NCBI GenBank assembly: GCA_965205975.1
Contig: OZ242195.1
Location: forward strand, 2,528,001 to 2,592,000
Source of the DNA: Candidatus Latescibacterota bacterium
GTDB lineage: Bacteria > Latescibacterota > UBA2968
Reading direction: 5' to 3'
Length of the DNA stretch: 64,000 nt
The notes below the pieces were generated by a model. The model was not told the DNA's origin, searched no databases, and was given only the letters and a program-made list of their open reading frames with translations. A program made the translations under genes and the position numbers. Each line of letters begins with the position of its first letter. Position 1 is the stretch's first letter. This document shows, piece after piece, positions 22,272-42,981 of the stretch.

Positions 22272-22505
22272 TCATGAAAGGGCATACCAATCTGACATTG
22301 TGATTTCGCGTTCGAGAATCGCTCCAATTTCTCTGATCATGAATCGCAATTGCGGAACAGAGTATTCAGAATTAGACGGGATGGACAATCGGTGATTTTG
22401 ATAGGTCATAAATTGGTGACGTGTACCCGAATAGGGACCCTCAAATCCGAGTTTGCGAAGACGACGAATAAAATCGCGACGTTTACACGGTGTCCAACGA
22501 TTCAT
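22272..22505 (-). CDS. hicA: HicA-family toxin (mRNA interferase)
   Basis: R..I..LR.LGF.GP..G..H.FM......IP motif; overlaps hicB. Confidence 0.85.
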   Translation of the reverse strand: MNRWTPCKRRDFIRRLRKLGFEGPYSGTRHQFMTYQNHRLSIPSNSEYSVPQLRFMIREIGAILEREITMSDWYALS

Positions 22506-22755
22506 GCATGGGCACCTTATTTAGGTCAATATCATTAATTACAGGAAGTGTATGTCCAAGTTTAATACCCACAAAAATCCAATCTTCGAGTGTGGAATGG
22601 AGTTCCGATTCACAATCGCGAAGCGAATTAGCAAATGCCACCACACCCTTACATACGGGAATACATCCACCGAATGTGCCGTCTTCAAGTTTGTCGTATT
22701 CGGCCTGTGCCATGAGGTCTTTAATGTAGTCCGTGAGGATAAATTGTGTAGCCAT
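22483..22755 (-). CDS. hicB: HicB-family antitoxin (short form)
   Basis: Y..L.DG.F.G.IP.C.GV.A...L..C..EL...LEDW.......LP. Confidence 0.85.
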   Translation of the reverse strand: MATQFILTDYIKDLMAQAEYDKLEDGTFGGCIPVCKGVVAFANSLRDCESELHSTLEDWIFVGIKLGHTLPVINDIDLNKVPMHESLDTV

Positions 22756-22768
22756 AATAAAACCCTCG

Positions 22769-23989
22769 CTATACTGCCGCAGCCATTTTTTTCAGTTGTT
22801 TGAGCGACTGTTCGGTTTTAATATTATTTTTTACAAAAGCATCTTTCAAGAACTTAAAAAATATGTCGCGGTCAGCACCGCGCACAATGGCGCGTTCGTG
22901 GGATTCGGATAAGACGACGGGATATCCGCGCCCCTTATCGACCTGATCGACAACCGTGGTGTGTACGAGATCGAGCAACTCTCGGTCTTTGGCAACCCAT
23001 TCGGGAATTTCGACGCGCCCAATTTCCCAACCCGTATGCACGTAAAAAAAGCAGATGCGGTGGGGACCGTAGTCCTCGAGAATTTTAGACGCGCTGCGAT
23101 AAACGCCACTGCGCTCGCCGCGTTTGAGTCTGCGGGCATACAGCATATCGTCGGTAACGCCTGCAATGGGTTCACAGGGAATGGGCGCAGGCGGTTCGGA
23201 ATCGCCATCAAGATCGAGAAGATGCTGCGCCTCGGCTGCTTTCCACGGGCACTTGTCGCAGTTGGTGGGCTGTTCGGGACAGAGGCCCACGCGCAAGGCA
23301 TTGAGCACATCGGCGCTACCGGGATCTGAAATATACCCGGCAATGGGAACGCGAAGTTCGCGCAGACGCTCCAAACCCGCGAGCGTGGTCTGGAGAGTTT
23401 CGCGGCGAAAATCGTAGGGTTTGCCTTCGAGCATCCACAAAATCAGGGTACCATCGGTCAGCCCAACACATGTTCGGCCCTCTGTGTGCGCCAGAGCAGA
23501 GAGGGTAACCACCTTTTCGAGTTCCATCGCATTGCGCCGCACGCCAACGACTTCTCGGGTGATTGGACTGCGCTTGCCCGCCCATTCCTGATAGAGGTCG
23601 TCTTCATCGTAAAAAAGCGTTGGTTCGCTGTTTAACACAGGGCGTTCTCCCGTGCCGTAATGAATGACGACATAGCCAATATTGATCAGAAAACAATTGG
23701 CGACTTCGTGCCGGTCGGGGAAAATCTGAGACCCGTCGGCGGCAATAACGGTGAGTTCTTTGGGGCGGCTGGGTTTTGGGCACGCCTCGGTAATCGGCCC
23801 GCCGAGTTGGGCAACCAGCCAGGAGGTGCGGCTGCGCGCAATTTTAATACCCAAAGTTTCCCAGGCATCTTCCCAGCGATCCATTTCGGAACACGCCAGA
23901 TCAATGCGAGCAAAAAAGTCGTCTTGCAGACTACTGGCATCAACCGCCATCTGGTCAATCTGGCGTTTGAGCAAACCGTAATCGAGCAT
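22769..23989 (-). CDS. nurA: NurA-family nuclease
   Basis: A.DGSQI.P..H, L.DGTL, GR.E.P.W, GYP..L.E.H..A motifs. Confidence 0.9.
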   Translation of the reverse strand: MLDYGLLKRQIDQMAVDASSLQDDFFARIDLACSEMDRWEDAWETLGIKIARSRTSWLVAQLGGPITEACPKPSRPKELTVIAADGSQIFPDRHEVANCFLINIGYVVIHYGTGERPVLNSEPTLFYDEDDLYQEWAGKRSPITREVVGVRRNAMELEKVVTLSALAHTEGRTCVGLTDGTLILWMLEGKPYDFRRETLQTTLAGLERLRELRVPIAGYISDPGSADVLNALRVGLCPEQPTNCDKCPWKAAEAQHLLDLDGDSEPPAPIPCEPIAGVTDDMLYARRLKRGERSGVYRSASKILEDYGPHRICFFYVHTGWEIGRVEIPEWVAKDRELLDLVHTTVVDQVDKGRGYPVVLSESHERAIVRGADRDIFFKFLKDAFVKNNIKTEQSLKQLKKMAAAV

Positions 23990-24016
23990 AAGAGGCTCCA
24001 GTGAGGTGGCTCTTGA

Positions 24017-24574
24017 CTATACAATTGACTCATAAAAGAATTGCCGACCACCGCCGGGGACACTGCCATCGCGCACGCGGCACACGAGACCCATTTTTTG
24101 AAGGGCATTGAGCCGATTGCATGCGATATTAATATTTTTATGCAGCGCGTGGGCAAACTCGGAAGACGTGCCTTTTTTTCGAATCAGTACAATGTCAAGG
24201 GCTTCTCGAATCGGCGTTTTGAGCACACCGAGCACATGAATATCGCCTTCGCCATCTTTGAAAAGCGCGGCCAGGTCGCGCAATTTGAGCACCGCCTCGA
24301 AGGTCTCGCGCACGGAATCATTGGCATTTTGAATAAAGGTAAAGCGATTGCCAAGCTCCCCGCTGCCAATACGCATGAGCAGTTTGCAAAGCAACTCGTC
24401 GGCACAGGAGATATCGATAAACGAGACATTGGCAAAATCGAGAGGTGTAACCGCATCGTCATCGGCTGTTTGCATAAATGCCATAAGCTGATTGAGCAGG
24501 ACTTCACCTCGATCTCGCCCACTCAGAATACCCGTAGGCGTCTCAAAAACGAAAGGGAGGGTTTGTTCAAGCAT
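24017..24574 (-). CDS. STAS-like (DUF4325-type) domain + C-terminal winged helix
   Basis: L.GR..G, LDF..V..ID.S.ADE...L; wHTH 'S.E.A..L...IN...NRL..L...GLV.R......GG....Y'. Confidence 0.7.
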   Translation of the reverse strand: MLEQTLPFVFETPTGILSGRDRGEVLLNQLMAFMQTADDDAVTPLDFANVSFIDISCADELLCKLLMRIGSGELGNRFTFIQNANDSVRETFEAVLKLRDLAALFKDGEGDIHVLGVLKTPIREALDIVLIRKKGTSSEFAHALHKNINIACNRLNALQKMGLVCRVRDGSVPGGGRQFFYESIV

Positions 24575-37256: not shown

Positions 37257-38405
37257 GTGAGACCGATAATTCCCGACGATCTCCGAGACATCGAAGAAAA
37301 AGTAAACCTGGGGCAACGACTTTCTGCCGAAGATGGCATGCGGCTTTACGAGACGCCCGACCTCAATGCCGTAGGATATTTGGCCAATATCTCGCGCGAA
37401 CGCCTGTGCGGCAATGTGGCGTGGTACGTGCGGAACCAGCACATCAACTATACCAACGTCTGCAACAAACTGTGCCGATTTTGCTCTTTTTATGTAAAAC
37501 CAAAAGACGAGCGGGGCTATGTATTATCGCCCGAAGATATTCAAAAGCGCGTATTGGAATACATCGACCTGCCCATTTCTGAAATCCACATGGTCGCGGG
37601 CATCAATCCCAAACTTCCCTATTCGTATTATCTCGATATCGTGCGCGCTGTCAAAGATATGCGCCCCGATGTCGCGGTAAAAGCATTTACCGCAATCGAA
37701 TGGGTGCAAATTGCGCGTATTGCAAAAAAGCCACTAAAGGATGTCATGACCGAATTAAAAGCGGCTGGCGTATCGTCCATTCCCGGCGGGGGCGCAGAAG
37801 TATTTAGCGATCGCGTCCAGGAAGATTTATTCTGGACCAAAGCGGATTCCGAAGAATGGCTCGAAGTGGCGCGCACGGCACATGAAGTCGGCCTGCCTAC
37901 CAATGCGACAATGCTGTATGGTCATATCGAAAACCCAAAAGAACGCATCGATCATCTCGTGCGATTGCGCGAATTACAGGACGAAACCGGCGGTTTTTTG
38001 ACGTATATCCCCCTGTCATTTCATCCCGAACGCACAGAATTAGAGCATTTACCCGGCCCGACAGGTATCGCGGATTTAAGAGAAATTGCCGTGGGGCGAT
38101 TGATGCTGGACAACTTCCTCCACATCAAAACATTCTGGATTATGAACACCATTGAAATTTCACAGGTGGCTTTGTGGTACGGCGCAGACGATATCGACGG
38201 CACAATACAGGAATACGAAATCACGCGCCGTTCATATTCAGAGACGCGACAGGTGCTCACCCGCAAGCAACTGGTCGAACGCGTTATAGAGTCCGGACGC
38301 GATCCCGTCGAACGAGATAACCTATACAATATTTTATCGACCGAGCGAGAAATTTTAGAAGAAACACCTATAGGAATCCCGGGTGAAATACCGGTGATTT
38401 CGTAA
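37257..38405 (+). CDS. mqnE: aminofutalosine synthase (radical SAM, CofH family)
   Basis: N.HINYTNVC...C.FCSF, PGGGAE, NATMLYGH, HIK.FW, GADD.DGT. Confidence 0.88.
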   Translation: MRPIIPDDLRDIEEKVNLGQRLSAEDGMRLYETPDLNAVGYLANISRERLCGNVAWYVRNQHINYTNVCNKLCRFCSFYVKPKDERGYVLSPEDIQKRVLEYIDLPISEIHMVAGINPKLPYSYYLDIVRAVKDMRPDVAVKAFTAIEWVQIARIAKKPLKDVMTELKAAGVSSIPGGGAEVFSDRVQEDLFWTKADSEEWLEVARTAHEVGLPTNATMLYGHIENPKERIDHLVRLRELQDETGGFLTYIPLSFHPERTELEHLPGPTGIADLREIAVGRLMLDNFLHIKTFWIMNTIEISQVALWYGADDIDGTIQEYEITRRSYSETRQVLTRKQLVERVIESGRDPVERDNLYNILSTEREILEETPIGIPGEIPVIS

Positions 38406-38430
38406 ACTTCCCTATATCCCAGGATTCGAC

Positions 38431-39531
38431 ATGATCGACGACATTGTTGAAAAAGTATATAGCGACGAGCGCATTTCCACAGATGACGCCATGCGTTTGT
38501 TTGCACATCCCAATGTAACCGAATTGGGCTTGTTAGCCGATGTAGTGCGGCGGCGCAAATGGCCCGAAGACACGGTAACTTATAATATCGGGCGAAATAT
38601 CAATTACACGAACGTGTGCTGGGTAAGATGCGATTTCTGTGCATTTTATCGCCCGCCGGGATCCGACGAAGGCTATACATTGCCCAGAGAACAGATCTAT
38701 GAAAAAATTGACGAACTCATTGCCGTGGGCGGTGACGTGTCAAAAGGCAGCGAGATTTTGATGCAAGGGGGATTGAACCCAAAACTGCGCGTAGATTACT
38801 ACGAAGACCTCTTTTCCTCAATACGCAATCGCTACCCGCAAATCCATCAGCATTGTTTATCTGCCACAGAAATTATTTATATCGCGCATATCTCGCGTAT
38901 GTCACTCGAAAAATGCATTCGCTGCTTGCGCGATGCCGGTCTGGATTCTATTCCGGGAGCTGGCGCGGAAATTTTGTCGGACGAGGTGCGCGACATCATC
39001 GGCTTTCGCAAAGACCGCGTCCACGAATGGCTTGCGGTACATCGCATTGCACACGAATTGGACATGCACACATCGGCGACCATGATGTATGGACATGTCG
39101 AAACCATTGAACAGCGAATAGAACATCTGGAACACATTCGCAATTTGCAGGATGAGACGGGCGGATTCACCGCATTTATCGCGTGGAATTTTCAGCCGGA
39201 TTACACCGCCCTTGCCAACGATCAAGGGCGATGGAATGGCATAAAAGCCACCGGATTTGACTATTTGCGAACCATCGCCATCGCGCGCCTATTTTTGGAC
39301 AATATCAAAAGTTTTCAAGCATCGTGGGTCACGCAGGGCGCCAAGGTCGCGCAGGTTAGCTTAAAATACGGCGTAAATGATTTTGGCAGCACAATGATGG
39401 AAGAAAACGTAGTCAGTGCAGCGGGCACGAGCCATACGGATACCATGACACTTCAAGAGATGCAACGGCTCATTCGGGATGCGGGATACGAGCCTGTAAG
39501 GCGAAATACGCGGTACGAGATTTTGAATTAG
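38431..39531 (+). CDS. mqnC: cyclic dehypoxanthinyl futalosine synthase (radical SAM)
   Basis: RNINYTNVC...C.FCAF, QGG..P, FI.W.FQP, QASWVTQG, NDFGS.MMEENVV. Confidence 0.92.
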   Translation: MIDDIVEKVYSDERISTDDAMRLFAHPNVTELGLLADVVRRRKWPEDTVTYNIGRNINYTNVCWVRCDFCAFYRPPGSDEGYTLPREQIYEKIDELIAVGGDVSKGSEILMQGGLNPKLRVDYYEDLFSSIRNRYPQIHQHCLSATEIIYIAHISRMSLEKCIRCLRDAGLDSIPGAGAEILSDEVRDIIGFRKDRVHEWLAVHRIAHELDMHTSATMMYGHVETIEQRIEHLEHIRNLQDETGGFTAFIAWNFQPDYTALANDQGRWNGIKATGFDYLRTIAIARLFLDNIKSFQASWVTQGAKVAQVSLKYGVNDFGSTMMEENVVSAAGTSHTDTMTLQEMQRLIRDAGYEPVRRNTRYEILN

Positions 39532-39543
39532 GGGTACGTAACG

Positions 39544-40341
39544 ATGCGTGTGCGTTTGGGCGTGGTGTCATATTTAAACTCGCGGCCACTGGTTGAAGTG
39601 CTGCGCACGGGTGCGATCGATCGCGATTTTGAACTGATCTACGGCGTACCCTCGCGATGCGCCGAACGGTTGCACACGGGCGAAACCGATGTGGCCTTAA
39701 TCCCCGCTGTAGAAATTGGACGCGGACGTGATGCCTATCGGATTGTGCCCAATATCGGCATTATTTCAAACGGGCCTGTTGGCAGTGTATTTATCGTACT
39801 AAACAAAGAACCCGAAGAAATTCAAACACTGGCTCTGGATCGCGGATCGCGCACATCAGTCGTACTGGCGCAGATAGTAATGGCGCGGCAATTTGGCTGC
39901 CGACCACAGGTATTTTTTCATTCCCCAGATATAGACGCAATGCTCAAACGCGCCGATGCCGCCCTGTTGATTGGCGATCCCGCGCTGGCATTGCCCCGCA
40001 AGCACTATCGAATCCTGGATCTGGGCGAAATTTGGACGCAGATGACAGGGTTGCCTTTTGTCTATGCCTGCTGGACCGGACGCCCCGATGCATTGACGCC
40101 ATATCACATTGACAAACTGATCGAGGCCAGGGAAAAAAGCAAGTCGCTTATCCCCAGCATCGCAAAGGACTATGCCGCTGAAACCCGCACCCTATCGCCC
40201 GCATTTTATGCTGAATATCTAACCAGAAATATCCTCTACGATCTGGGCGATTCAGAACTGGAAGGCTTGAGGCGATTCTATGCTTATGGTGCAGAACTGG
40301 AATTGATGGACACAGTGCCAGATATCCGCTTTTATGTTTGA
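39544..40341 (+). CDS. mqnA: chorismate dehydratase
   Basis: V.YLN..PL, G.V.SV, SRTSV.L, LLIGD.AL, DLG..W...TGLPFVYA.W. Confidence 0.92.
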   Translation: MRVRLGVVSYLNSRPLVEVLRTGAIDRDFELIYGVPSRCAERLHTGETDVALIPAVEIGRGRDAYRIVPNIGIISNGPVGSVFIVLNKEPEEIQTLALDRGSRTSVVLAQIVMARQFGCRPQVFFHSPDIDAMLKRADAALLIGDPALALPRKHYRILDLGEIWTQMTGLPFVYACWTGRPDALTPYHIDKLIEAREKSKSLIPSIAKDYAAETRTLSPAFYAEYLTRNILYDLGDSELEGLRRFYAYGAELELMDTVPDIRFYV

Positions 40342-41658: not shown

Positions 41659-42051
41659 ATGATTGAAATAGCACAAGTAGCACTGGCGATTTACGGCATA
41701 TTGTTAATTGTCGGAGGAATTATTGGGAAGACGAAAACCGGGAGTTCTGCATCCTTATTCGCAGGCGCAATCTGCGGTATTGTTGCGCTCGTTGGATACT
41801 GGCAAAGCCTGAGCGATCCCGCCGTTGGGTTTTTGACCGGCGGATTGGTCGGCTTGTTGCTCACGGGCATATTTATGAGCCGATTTGTCCGCACGCGAAA
41901 ATTTATGCCCGCGGGATTGGTGCTGCTACTCAGTCTTCTGGTGGGTATTTTGACAATGATGGCGAGACAGGAATACCTGCTCAATCAGGACAAACCAGTG
42001 GAAGAACTGACAAAAAAGGGCCAGGAACAATGTCCCTGGCCCAACGTCTGA
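41659..42051 (+). CDS. TMEM14 family membrane protein
   Basis: YG.L...GG..G..K.GS..SL..G and RF..T.KFMPAG motifs. Confidence 0.85.
   Translation: MIEIAQVALAIYGILLIVGGIIGKTKTGSSASLFAGAICGIVALVGYWQSLSDPAVGFLTGGLVGLLLTGIFMSRFVRTRKFMPAGLVLLLSLLVGILTMMARQEYLLNQDKPVEELTKKGQEQCPWPNV
42012..42042 (-). terminator. minus-strand intrinsic terminator within the TMEM14 3' end
   Basis: GGGCCAGGGAC-ATT-GTTCCTGGCCC-TTTTTT on the minus strand. Confidence 0.7.
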
Positions 42052-42240
42052 AGGGTCACAGCCTGAAAATCAGGCGTTCACCTCCGAGTTAAAATGTTTC
42101 ACATTAACCTCCTTTCGATATGCGCGATCCGCTTCCGGAAAGCGTTTTGCGCGGTGGATGCCAATATATCAGCAAACCGCACCAACCCGTTGGCCCGGTC
42201 ACATAAACACCGGAATGGATGCAGTTTTTCAGAAACGCAG
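42012..42240 (-). ncRNA. candidate structured RNA of about 200-230 nt
   Basis: between two terminators; TACACT -10-like box near 42245-42240; 5'/3' ends pair (CGTTTCTGAA/TTCAGACG); many hairpins; two GGAGGT motifs. Confidence 0.4.
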
Positions 42241-42267: not shown

Positions 42268-42302
42268 AAAAACGCCTGAGCTATAACACTCAGGCGTTTT
42301 TT
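42268..42302 (-). terminator. intrinsic terminator after the HTH gene
   Basis: AAAAACGCCTGAG/CTCAGGCGTTTTT stem with A/T tracts on both sides. Confidence 0.8.
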
Positions 42303-42675: not shown

Positions 42676-42930
42676 ATGTCCGTTCGTCTCCTCCAGGGAA
42701 TGAATATGTCGGGCGAAAAACCACCATACATACCAGACCCGCGGCTCCGGAGGGACGATAAAACTGCGACGGACAGATAGTGAATGACCGAAGCAGCTAC
42801 CTCACCGGAGGCGAACCGGGTATGTTATTAGTCGTAAATGCGAAAATTAAAGCCATCATGTTGCCTCCTTTCAAATAGACTTATGTAAACGATCACCCGT
42901 AAAACTGCGGGAATCTCACTGCATTGTCAA
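42676..42930 (-). promoter_or_regulatory. long leader with alternative pairings (candidate translational attenuator)
   Basis: rod 42729-42825 versus anti-SD pairing of 42747-42775 with 42676-42696; TTGACA at 42930-42925. Confidence 0.65.
42797..42859 (-). CDS. candidate leader peptide MMALIFAFTTNNIPGSPPVR
   Basis: AAAGGAGG SD 4/7 nt from tandem ATGs; last codons form the 5' arm of the leader rod. Confidence 0.65.
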   Translation of the reverse strand: MMALIFAFTTNNIPGSPPVR

Positions 42931-42981
42931 GACATACCTCCTCGCCCTTACACCGGCATGGATGCACTTTTGGGCGCCATA

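Follow-up and report, generated by a model that had tools for sequence, protein, structure and literature searches.

A putative ribosome-controlled attenuator upstream of a sigma-region-4-only regulator gene in Latescibacterota and Poribacteria

Introduction

Leaders of the mgtL/EF-P proline type carry a short upstream open reading frame (uORF) with prolines before the regulated gene, and WhiB7 is an Fe-S protein of four-cysteine fold with an AT-hook. The vmlR leader of B. subtilis comprises, as far as its published account goes, an anti-antiterminator that holds the uORF, an antiterminator, an intrinsic terminator, and a hairpin sequestering the Shine-Dalgarno sequence (SD); it is induced when a ribosome stalled on the uORF blocks the anti-antiterminator (PMC9226507). 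In whiB7/wblC, a uORF attenuator precedes the gene of a transcription factor that acts in positive feedback on its own promoter, and the regulon, in the portions of the accounts drawn on here, includes ABC transporters, transferases, ribosome GTPases with an RsgA paralogue among them, sigma factors, and non-coding RNAs (bioRxiv 10.1101/2023.06.02.543512, PMC7157823). WhiB7 is described there as binding an AT-rich element 3 nt upstream of the -35 together with the primary sigma factor (PMC7157823). SigO-RsoA and the Tn916 pair Sig7-Sig8, according to the passages devoted to them, provide examples of a stand-alone sigma-region-4 protein with a self-activated promoter and a positive feedback loop (bioRxiv 10.64898/2026.10.01.756105, PMC8103513).

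The locus described here lies on the minus strand of the window, meaning the whole stretch of 64,000 nt analysed from a Latescibacterota contig (OZ242195.1, positions 2,528,001 to 2,592,000); coordinates refer to the window unless another contig is named. A ribosome-controlled attenuator, which together with its regulator would form a WhiB7-like translation-stress circuit built from unrelated parts, is its most likely mechanism, with a probability of roughly 0.72. The uncultured bacteria concerned are aquatic or sponge-associated. The RNA family, the regulator, its DNA motif, and an adjacent small RNA were not found in Rfam 15 or in searches of open-access main text; supplementary motif catalogues could list them.

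The locus and the regulator gene

The regulator gene and its immediate surroundings are as follows.

44322-42982, minus strand: rarA/mgsA (Pfam MgsA_C), upstream neighbour of the HTH gene, given as context only
42675-42301, minus strand: HTH gene with a 124-aa product (Pfam Sigma70_r4, 29.1 bits)
42268-42301, unstranded: intrinsic terminator 3′ of the HTH gene, with T-runs on both strands

The interval between rarA and the HTH gene measures 306 nt on the minus strand. The genes upstream of the module differ among lineages, and rarA is not a conserved part of it. Elsewhere in the window (37257-40341, plus strand), three ORFs following recN are, as we presume from their resemblance, mqnE, mqnC, and mqnA of the futalosine pathway.

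Sigma70_r4 is the sole family matching the 124-aa protein above cut-off. The protein is composed of a conserved N-terminal FWE motif, a long helix, the sigma-region-4 HTH, a β-hairpin, and a final helix; its predicted model (pLDDT 82.9) is devoid of a sigma region 2. The top structural matches of this model are the region 4 of ECF sigma factors, the closest being SigL region 4 (Z 10.3, rmsd 2.5, 77 residues), a level that mostly helical models can attain by their common arrangement. Foldseek returned no match at E <= 0.001. No WhiB family of Pfam matches the protein, which has one cysteine only and no cysteine cluster. Its relatives amount to 219 cluster representatives at E <= 1e-10, and it is present in 65 of the 132 genomes of the class.

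YlxM/UPF0122 proteins and phage sigma-4-like activators share the small sigma-4-like HTH fold. NCBIfam YlxM weakly matches 40 of 41 members of the HTH family (best E 2e-07), and a UPF0122 structure aligns with the HTH model at Z 7.7. Unlike YlxM/UPF0122, however, the protein of the window has no YlxM match itself and contains its own FWE N terminus and a SQHLFG-x-x-R-x-G-x-x-x-GG motif.

Two variants of the gene were seen in relatives. One copy (L035, in G040) carries an in-frame TGA at codon 7 and an altered A-tract in its motif, and has the appearance of a decaying copy. A paralogue with 46% identity (L037-L042) occurs in six of the 21 genomes of the genus and is preceded by a variant motif and a different leader with a repeated CCGCTAATAACGG hairpin.

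Architecture of the leader

The preliminary description of this stretch had placed a uORF, a rod, an anti-SD hairpin, and the HTH gene on the minus strand, and all four are found where it put them. The elements of the leader are, from the promoter to the gene:

42902-42930, minus strand: sigma70-type promoter, TTGACA at 42930-42925, 17 nt, CAGTTT at 42907-42902
42860-42871, minus strand: SD1, the SD of the uORF (AAAGGAGG at 42871-42864) and 5′ strand of helix H1 (anti-antiterminator)
42797-42859, minus strand: uORF of 20 codons, MMALIFAFTTNNIPGSPPVR followed by a stop; its presence is conserved, its peptide is not
42802-42825, minus strand: element A, core CGCCUCCGG at 42813-42805, partner of SD1 (H1) or of element B (H2, rod)
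42728-42758, minus strand: element B, with the anti-SD at 42758-42747, overlapping the rod 3′ strand and the terminator 5′ arm
42715-42747, minus strand: H3, a decayed intrinsic terminator, weak here and strong with a U-tract in most other lineages
42677-42696, minus strand: SD2 of the HTH gene with its spacer, acting as the 3′ strand of H4 by folding and covariation

Transcription of the leader probably starts near 42895. The TTGAC-17-TAnnnT promoter is common to many relatives, with none seen in one family of them; in the window, a consensus promoter scan scored it below threshold, because its -10 element is weak here. Contigs from RNA libraries of four studies span leader and gene, two of them extending upstream of the promoter; such contigs show neither start nor level. 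The RNA runs containing this stretch are mostly sponge metatranscriptomes.

The rod (42825-42728) folds with -41.7 kcal/mol (z -3.73, a value reached by none of 300 shuffles) and the anti-SD hairpin (42775-42677), which masks the SD of the HTH gene and its spacer, with -41.1 kcal/mol (z -3.27, 2 of 300), both z-scores being inflated since these stretches were selected for pairing. The whole 271-nt stretch folds unremarkably (z -1.06, 30 of 200 shuffles equally good). Rod and anti-SD hairpin are mutually exclusive because CCUCCGGAG is common to both. The inner rod pairs that had been proposed (AGG/CCT, CTGC/GCAG, CGG/CCG) are not conserved and form in more than one register. A further helix that had been overlooked, between SD1 and element A (H1), is present in the free minimum-energy fold, and the terminator of the relatives had likewise escaped notice. 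In the 21 loci of the genus, H3 is worth -5.8 to -10.4 kcal/mol, as against about -10 to -23 kcal/mol elsewhere, with five to eight U in 8 nt.

As to the chance level of such an arrangement, an AGGAGG followed by a uORF of 10-45 codons within 300 nt is found at 12 of 2665 crudely called genes of this genome, a set to which the HTH gene itself does not belong, and none of these 12 has an anti-SD hexamer within the uORF. With a sequence profile, this genome yields a single leader and a single small RNA. Rfam 15 gives no match at gathering score in the window; the sub-threshold matches are weak, the best one lying on the terminator hairpin.

Conservation and covariation

The comparison covers 84 distinct orthologue leaders, mostly from Latescibacterota, whose proteins share 48-100% identity; seven paralogue loci and one broken copy were left out. 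In every lineage, the same chain recurs: SD1, uORF, element A, element B (CUCCGGAGCCGCGG), a hairpin with U-tract, and SD2. A strong SD with a uORF of 10-40 codons is found in 82 of the 84 leaders, and element A reads GCCUCC or GUCUCC, mostly 8-40 nt upstream of the uORF stop. In a second set of mostly Poribacteria loci, 74 of 80 have the uORF. The Poribacteria leaders that were inspected present SD1, A, B, anti-SD, and SD2 in different sequence, with no Pro-Pro and no terminator.

For the cognate-pairing test, 30 lineage representatives were hand-picked from the 84, and each strand was paired with the partners of all 30. All four helices are stronger with their own than with foreign partners: H1 (SD1:A) by -15.3 versus -13.9 kcal/mol (4 of 20000 permutations), H2 (A:B) by -24.8 versus -18.8, H3 (terminator) by -14.8 versus -12.3, and H4 (anti-SD:SD2) by -17.7 versus -14.6 kcal/mol (0 of 20000 for each of these three). 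In four control pairings, the own partner is no better than a foreign one. The core pairs of H1 are kept in 28-30 of the 30 lineages; its covariation is the weakest, because an SD is constrained anyway. In a MAFFT alignment of the 30 lineages, 82% of the cells of the OFF set are paired, with 33 two-sided changes, and 79% of the ON set, with 52 (0 of 500 shuffles in either case), figures that overstate the covariation in that the structures derive from the same sequences and the relatives are not independent. The number of pairs with a two-sided change is not above that of the shuffles (27 and 72 of 500). Own-partner permutations and two-sided changes together support both the rod and the anti-SD helix, for which covariation had been called for. 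Comparison thus establishes, at the level of sequence, that the layout of the leader is conserved and covaries, that the peptide is not conserved, and that the DNA motif recurs.

Apart from these sets, distant homologues from Hydrogenedentota (L361, L362, L366) have a different leader, with a uORF that overlaps the partner of the terminator arm; among the Hydrogenedentota and Poribacteria outliers, three of the five loci reached by script have a uORF over this partner.

Logic of the switch

The leader would act as a ribosome-controlled attenuator with four linked helices. In H1, SD1 is bound to element A, forming an anti-antiterminator. In H2, A is bound to B; this is the rod, which would serve both as antiterminator and as anti-anti-SD. 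In H3, B folds as a terminator, and in H4, the anti-SD of B covers the SD of the HTH gene. In an untranslated leader, H1 would form and leave B free for H3 and/or H4 (OFF). A ribosome running through the uORF would cover A and likewise free B for H3 and/or H4 (OFF). A ribosome held at the start or the first few codons would block SD1 and leave A free to form H2 (ON). In vivo, we infer that the ON state is triggered by stress on initiation or early elongation, for example by ribosome-targeting natural antibiotics.

This scheme was modelled by folding the 30 leaders, as RNA ending at the U-tract, with the ribosome footprint masked. The antiterminator exceeds 0.5 in 13 of 30 leaders when free, in 23 with the ribosome at the start, in 17 at codon 3, in 7 at six codons before A, and in none on A. 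The terminator follows the reverse course, exceeding 0.5 in 17 free leaders and in 6, 13, 23, and 28 for the same ribosome positions. The full leader of the window, without ribosome, reaches -72.7 kcal/mol with H1 and H4 versus -68.8 kcal/mol with the rod. With the ribosome on codons 1-3 of this leader, the rod rises to 0.2-0.4 (0.41 at most) and SD2 is unpaired at <=0.21, meaning a partial ON state at equilibrium. When the RNA is cut at the U-tract, the rod prevails with no ribosome present, in the window and in 13 of 30 lineages; hence, the free state depends on the folding order. Of the 30 lineages, only 20 form H1 in nascent RNA, and 7 show no switching to ON in the model.

Folding and conservation thereby support the central idea of the preliminary description, a uORF-coupled switch before an uncharacterised sigma-region-4 HTH gene, and folding agrees with the rod as ON state and the anti-SD hairpin as OFF state. 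A ribosome over the last uORF codons was held to switch the gene OFF, and forcing 42830-42797 unpaired does yield the anti-SD hairpin. The reverse proposition, that poor leader translation turns the gene ON, needs amending, as poor translation by itself is not predicted to do so: without a ribosome, SD1 pairs with the 5′ arm of the rod and the full leader folds OFF. The translational switch that had been proposed agrees with this genus, where H3 is decayed and H4 extended, so that control here would be mainly translational. In most relatives, the switch is predicted to be transcriptional too, by a terminator with U-tract, and mainly translational control is predicted only for this genus and Poribacteria.

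The DNA motif and the putative regulon

Upstream of the leader promoter, a further conserved element is located.

42949-42971, minus strand: conserved DNA motif AAAAGTGCATCC-N6-GTGTA, top PWM match of the genome

The motif, GTGCATCC, occurs in 82 of the 84 leaders, 150-480 nt upstream of the HTH start. It is a 23-bp site at a variable distance of 18-40 nt from TTGAC, and some leaders have no TTGAC. It likely represents a promoter or activator site for the HTH protein. Besides those of the HTH gene and the small RNA, sites in this genome precede the single infA, a PcfJ gene, and the operons of an RND efflux system and an ECF sigma factor. Among informative infA loci, 18 of 23 in this family have the motif, as against none of six in the next family; of 23 pcfJ loci, 21 have it, every one of them from this genus. 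It also lies upstream of RIO1 kinases in two lineages and of ABC exporters in others. A second rsgA has the motif in 10 of 13 loci versus none of 17 for the housekeeping rsgA; the rsgA of this genome itself is without it. Of the 76 genomes of one family, 13 encode the second RsgA, and 11 of these 13 belong to the 17 that bear the HTH gene. Several targets are not ribosomal. No such motif is seen beside the Hydrogenedentota homologues. A tally of the motif against the HTH gene (63 of 65 HTH-positive genomes, 12 of 67 others) is circular for the promoter of the HTH gene itself and is not used as support.

The HTH protein would bind this motif and activate the genes behind GTGCATCC-N6-GTGTA, namely its own gene, the small RNA, infA, the second rsgA, RIO1, pcfJ, and efflux genes. 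Alternatively, the leader is an attenuator as described, and recognition of the motif falls to a different factor, either an alternative sigma factor or an activator, with the HTH gene as only one of its targets. A spacing of 25-50 nt to the SDs of several genes and a purine some 6 nt past GTGTA give the motif a promoter-like character, which speaks for such a factor; furthermore, an ECF sigma operon sits behind the motif, and two incomplete genomes in which no HTH gene was found still have the motif (G022, 91% complete; G023, 82% complete). This is nevertheless unlikely, since the core of the motif shifts with the recognition helix of the HTH protein in three clades. The 46%-identical paralogue, with the recognition helix SVPSVSQH, has the core GTGCCTTA in 6 of 6 closely related loci, which count as one event, and a third homologue with the helix PQQVVSQH has two flanking GTGCATGT sites. 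This covariation points to the HTH protein as the reader of the motif core. Also against another factor, the small RNA is without the motif in four genomes where the HTH gene was not found, and in the nearly closed, HTH-negative G106, the second rsgA has no motif.

Several motif-led loci have features of their own. The infA gene (G000:C1:3007874-3008236, minus strand) encodes 101 aa with a Gly/Arg-rich C-terminal extension and has GTGCATCC about 60 nt before its start. At G000:C1:2319709-2321190 (plus strand), the motif is followed by a TTGAC promoter and, beyond a long leader containing short ORFs and terminator-like hairpins, by an ECF sigma gene, an arrangement repeated in G011 and G018. 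In L171 (G024:C182), L164, and L165, a motif-led PcfJ-like gene and an aldo-keto reductase gene have uORF/terminator leaders of their own. In Poribacteria as well as in Latescibacterota, the motif also precedes genes for long proteins of secreted or outer-membrane-like type (L429, L431, L254, L256, L282); two of them were scanned against NCBIfam, and no family was found for either. The motif scan also surfaced repeated CATCCCCACGCTTGTGGG-type units at about 22300-24100 of G000:C1, which we take to be CRISPR-array-like.

The adjacent small RNA

Beyond the terminator of the HTH gene, the second motif copy heads a predicted transcript.

42206-42228, minus strand: second motif copy, second-best PWM match in the genome, conserved, heading the small RNA
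42011-42200, minus strand: predicted small RNA of about 190 nt with inferred ends, 5′ hairpins, and an SD at 42116-42108
42102-42070, minus strand: small-RNA ORF of 10 codons, VKHFNSEVNA followed by a stop, of conserved fixed length
42042-42018, minus strand: predicted terminator of the small RNA

The small RNA folds with z -3.53 (0 of 200 shuffles). An internal GGAGG lies 8 nt before the stop here (8-10 nt across copies) and is buried in a hairpin over the stop. The distance between start and stop is 30 nt, without gaps, in 17 of 17 aligned copies, and the peptide and the frame of the GGAGG vary. At this spacing, a ribosome positioned on the stop codon could have its 16S rRNA paired with the internal SD. 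RNAalifold on the alignment gave the terminator and a spurious short helix only, the ORF region being poorly aligned. One RNA contig terminates with adapter at 42209, 9 nt from the predicted start of the small RNA; this is no evidence of a start.

A strict pattern finds the small RNA in this family only (23 of 132 genomes), and a profile reached further; 7 of 20 weak profile matches gave no readable unit. In all, the small RNA occurs across the class and in Poribacteria. In the mostly Poribacteria set, it lies upstream of the leader in 48 of 80 loci, all 48 with the motif. In seven genomes of a related genus, it has the motif and an ORF of 11-13 codons and lies at another place in the genome, and in four genomes where the HTH gene was not found, it is without the motif. 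The small RNA has no match in Rfam. The Rfam 6S RNA was not found in the genome, and the small RNA has an SD and an ORF instead of one long rod. A role as Csr sponge was considered and rejected, as no CsrA was detected in the genome. This genome (G000), a 98%-complete single contig, contains one tmRNA with the tag ADDNTYAMAA.

The proximity of small RNA and leader in two phyla, and a 12-bp duplex of -22.7 kcal/mol that the 3′ half of the small-RNA ORF can form with element A in the genus, bring up a switch operated in trans, through either the small RNA or a leader-binding protein, with the uORF serving only as ribosome landing site. This reading is improbable. Across 11 lineages, the cognate small RNA pairs no better with the leader than non-cognate ones do (14633 of 20000 permutations), whereas the small RNA's own cis hairpin does show cognate pairing (0 of 20000). 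The small RNA also occurs in genomes in which the HTH gene was not found, and no CsrA was found in this genome.

The sensing step

Control in cis by the ribosome on the uORF leaves the question of the signal. The preliminary description saw the input in ribosome pausing on Pro-Pro in the last codons of the leader, a pause that EF-P would relieve. The frame of element A lends this some credit: it is the Pro-Pro/Ser-Pro frame in 71 of 82 uORFs by script (72 after one correction) despite many length changes, the Pro-giving frame is ancestral by appearance, and a pause at element A could reinforce the OFF state. As the sensing step, the pause is nonetheless highly improbable. Conservation of the uORF and of Pro-Pro had been proposed as a check; the uORF passes it, with 82 of 84 leaders, and Pro-Pro does not, being found within the last 10 residues of only 41 of 82 uORFs. 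What is conserved is the nucleotide element GCCUCC/GUCUCC, not the prolines. Five lineages, separate on the protein tree, have element A in another frame, two genomes of this genus among them (IRLR before the stop); Poribacteria read it as WCLCP, GASA, or GTSA, and two uORFs end at or before it. Moreover, a stall there is predicted to be OFF: with the ribosome on A, the antiterminator forms in 0 of 30 leaders, so that the gene would be repressed rather than induced if EF-P were lost.

A classical amino-acid- or ligand-specific leader peptide, with which the general layout of uORF, antiterminator, and terminator is compatible, can be given next to no weight, as the uORFs have no common peptide motif or single-codon run, their commonest residues (P, R, S, and L, about 10% each) stem from element A, and the HTH gene under control is not biosynthetic.

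Significance

If the ribosome-controlled attenuator is correct, Latescibacterota and Poribacteria possess a testable translation-stress circuit, a likely role follows, through shared regulation, for the bacterial RIO1 kinase, the second RsgA, and PcfJ proteins, and one leader family shifts between transcriptional and purely translational control. A wider reading is offered tentatively, as a possibility with the odds against it. The HTH protein would be the founding member of a family of sigma-region-4-only master regulators, each with a compact promoter of its own (A-tract, protein-specific core, 6 nt, GTGTA); it may be one half of a split sigma factor, and a leader sensing ribosomes that are stuck at initiation would gate it. 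It would act back on 30S function via IF-1, the second RsgA, and a RIO1 kinase, and drive a small RNA of a new class, in which the fixed length of the ORF sets the internal SD at P-site distance from the stop codon, so that terminating ribosomes would be retained or sensed. Such a circuit would be a counterpart of WhiB7 that evolved independently in at least two uncultured phyla.

Comparison with known systems

The switch logic is already known from vmlR and whiB7, antibiotic-stress switches in Bacillus and Mycobacterium. The leader is not a WhiB protein system, and it is not a proline-sensing leader either. Unlike in mgtL, the prolines arise as a by-product of the anti-SD sequence and lack conservation, and the predicted effect of a stall on them is repression.

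With vmlR, the leader is likened by layout, not by sequence, and as far as the published vmlR account goes, it has the same layout in the uORF with its own SD, H1, H2, and H4. The uORF with its own SD is present in 82 of 84 leaders. The anti-antiterminator that a ribosome would disrupt corresponds to H1, which is conserved and covarying, and masking favours the antiterminator in 23 of 30 leaders. An antiterminator exclusive of a terminator is found in most lineages, with the terminator decayed in the genus and none seen in Poribacteria, and H4 represents the SD-sequestering hairpin. In contrast to vmlR as described, where the uORF has 3 codons and the gene encodes an ABC-F resistance factor, the uORF here has 17-40 codons and precedes a regulator gene. 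Furthermore, it spans the antiterminator arm, which would give rise to a third state, translated through and OFF.

With SigO-RsoA and Sig7-Sig8, in the passages on those systems, the protein shares a region 4 without region 2 and, putatively, a self-activated promoter with positive feedback. Unlike there, no sigma-2-like partner gene lies beside the HTH gene in the loci examined, nor was any conserved neighbouring gene seen in the loci inspected (19 proteins scanned), and the two conserved motif blocks are 6 nt apart, versus about 17. Compared with WhiB7 as portrayed in its accounts, the regulator is a sigma-region-4 HTH protein, and its 23-bp motif lies at a variable 18-40 nt from any TTGAC. 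Within the same accounts, the circuit nonetheless resembles whiB7/wblC in placing an attenuator before a regulator, in its probable positive feedback, and in a putative regulon with transporters, ribosome GTPases, and an RsgA paralogue.
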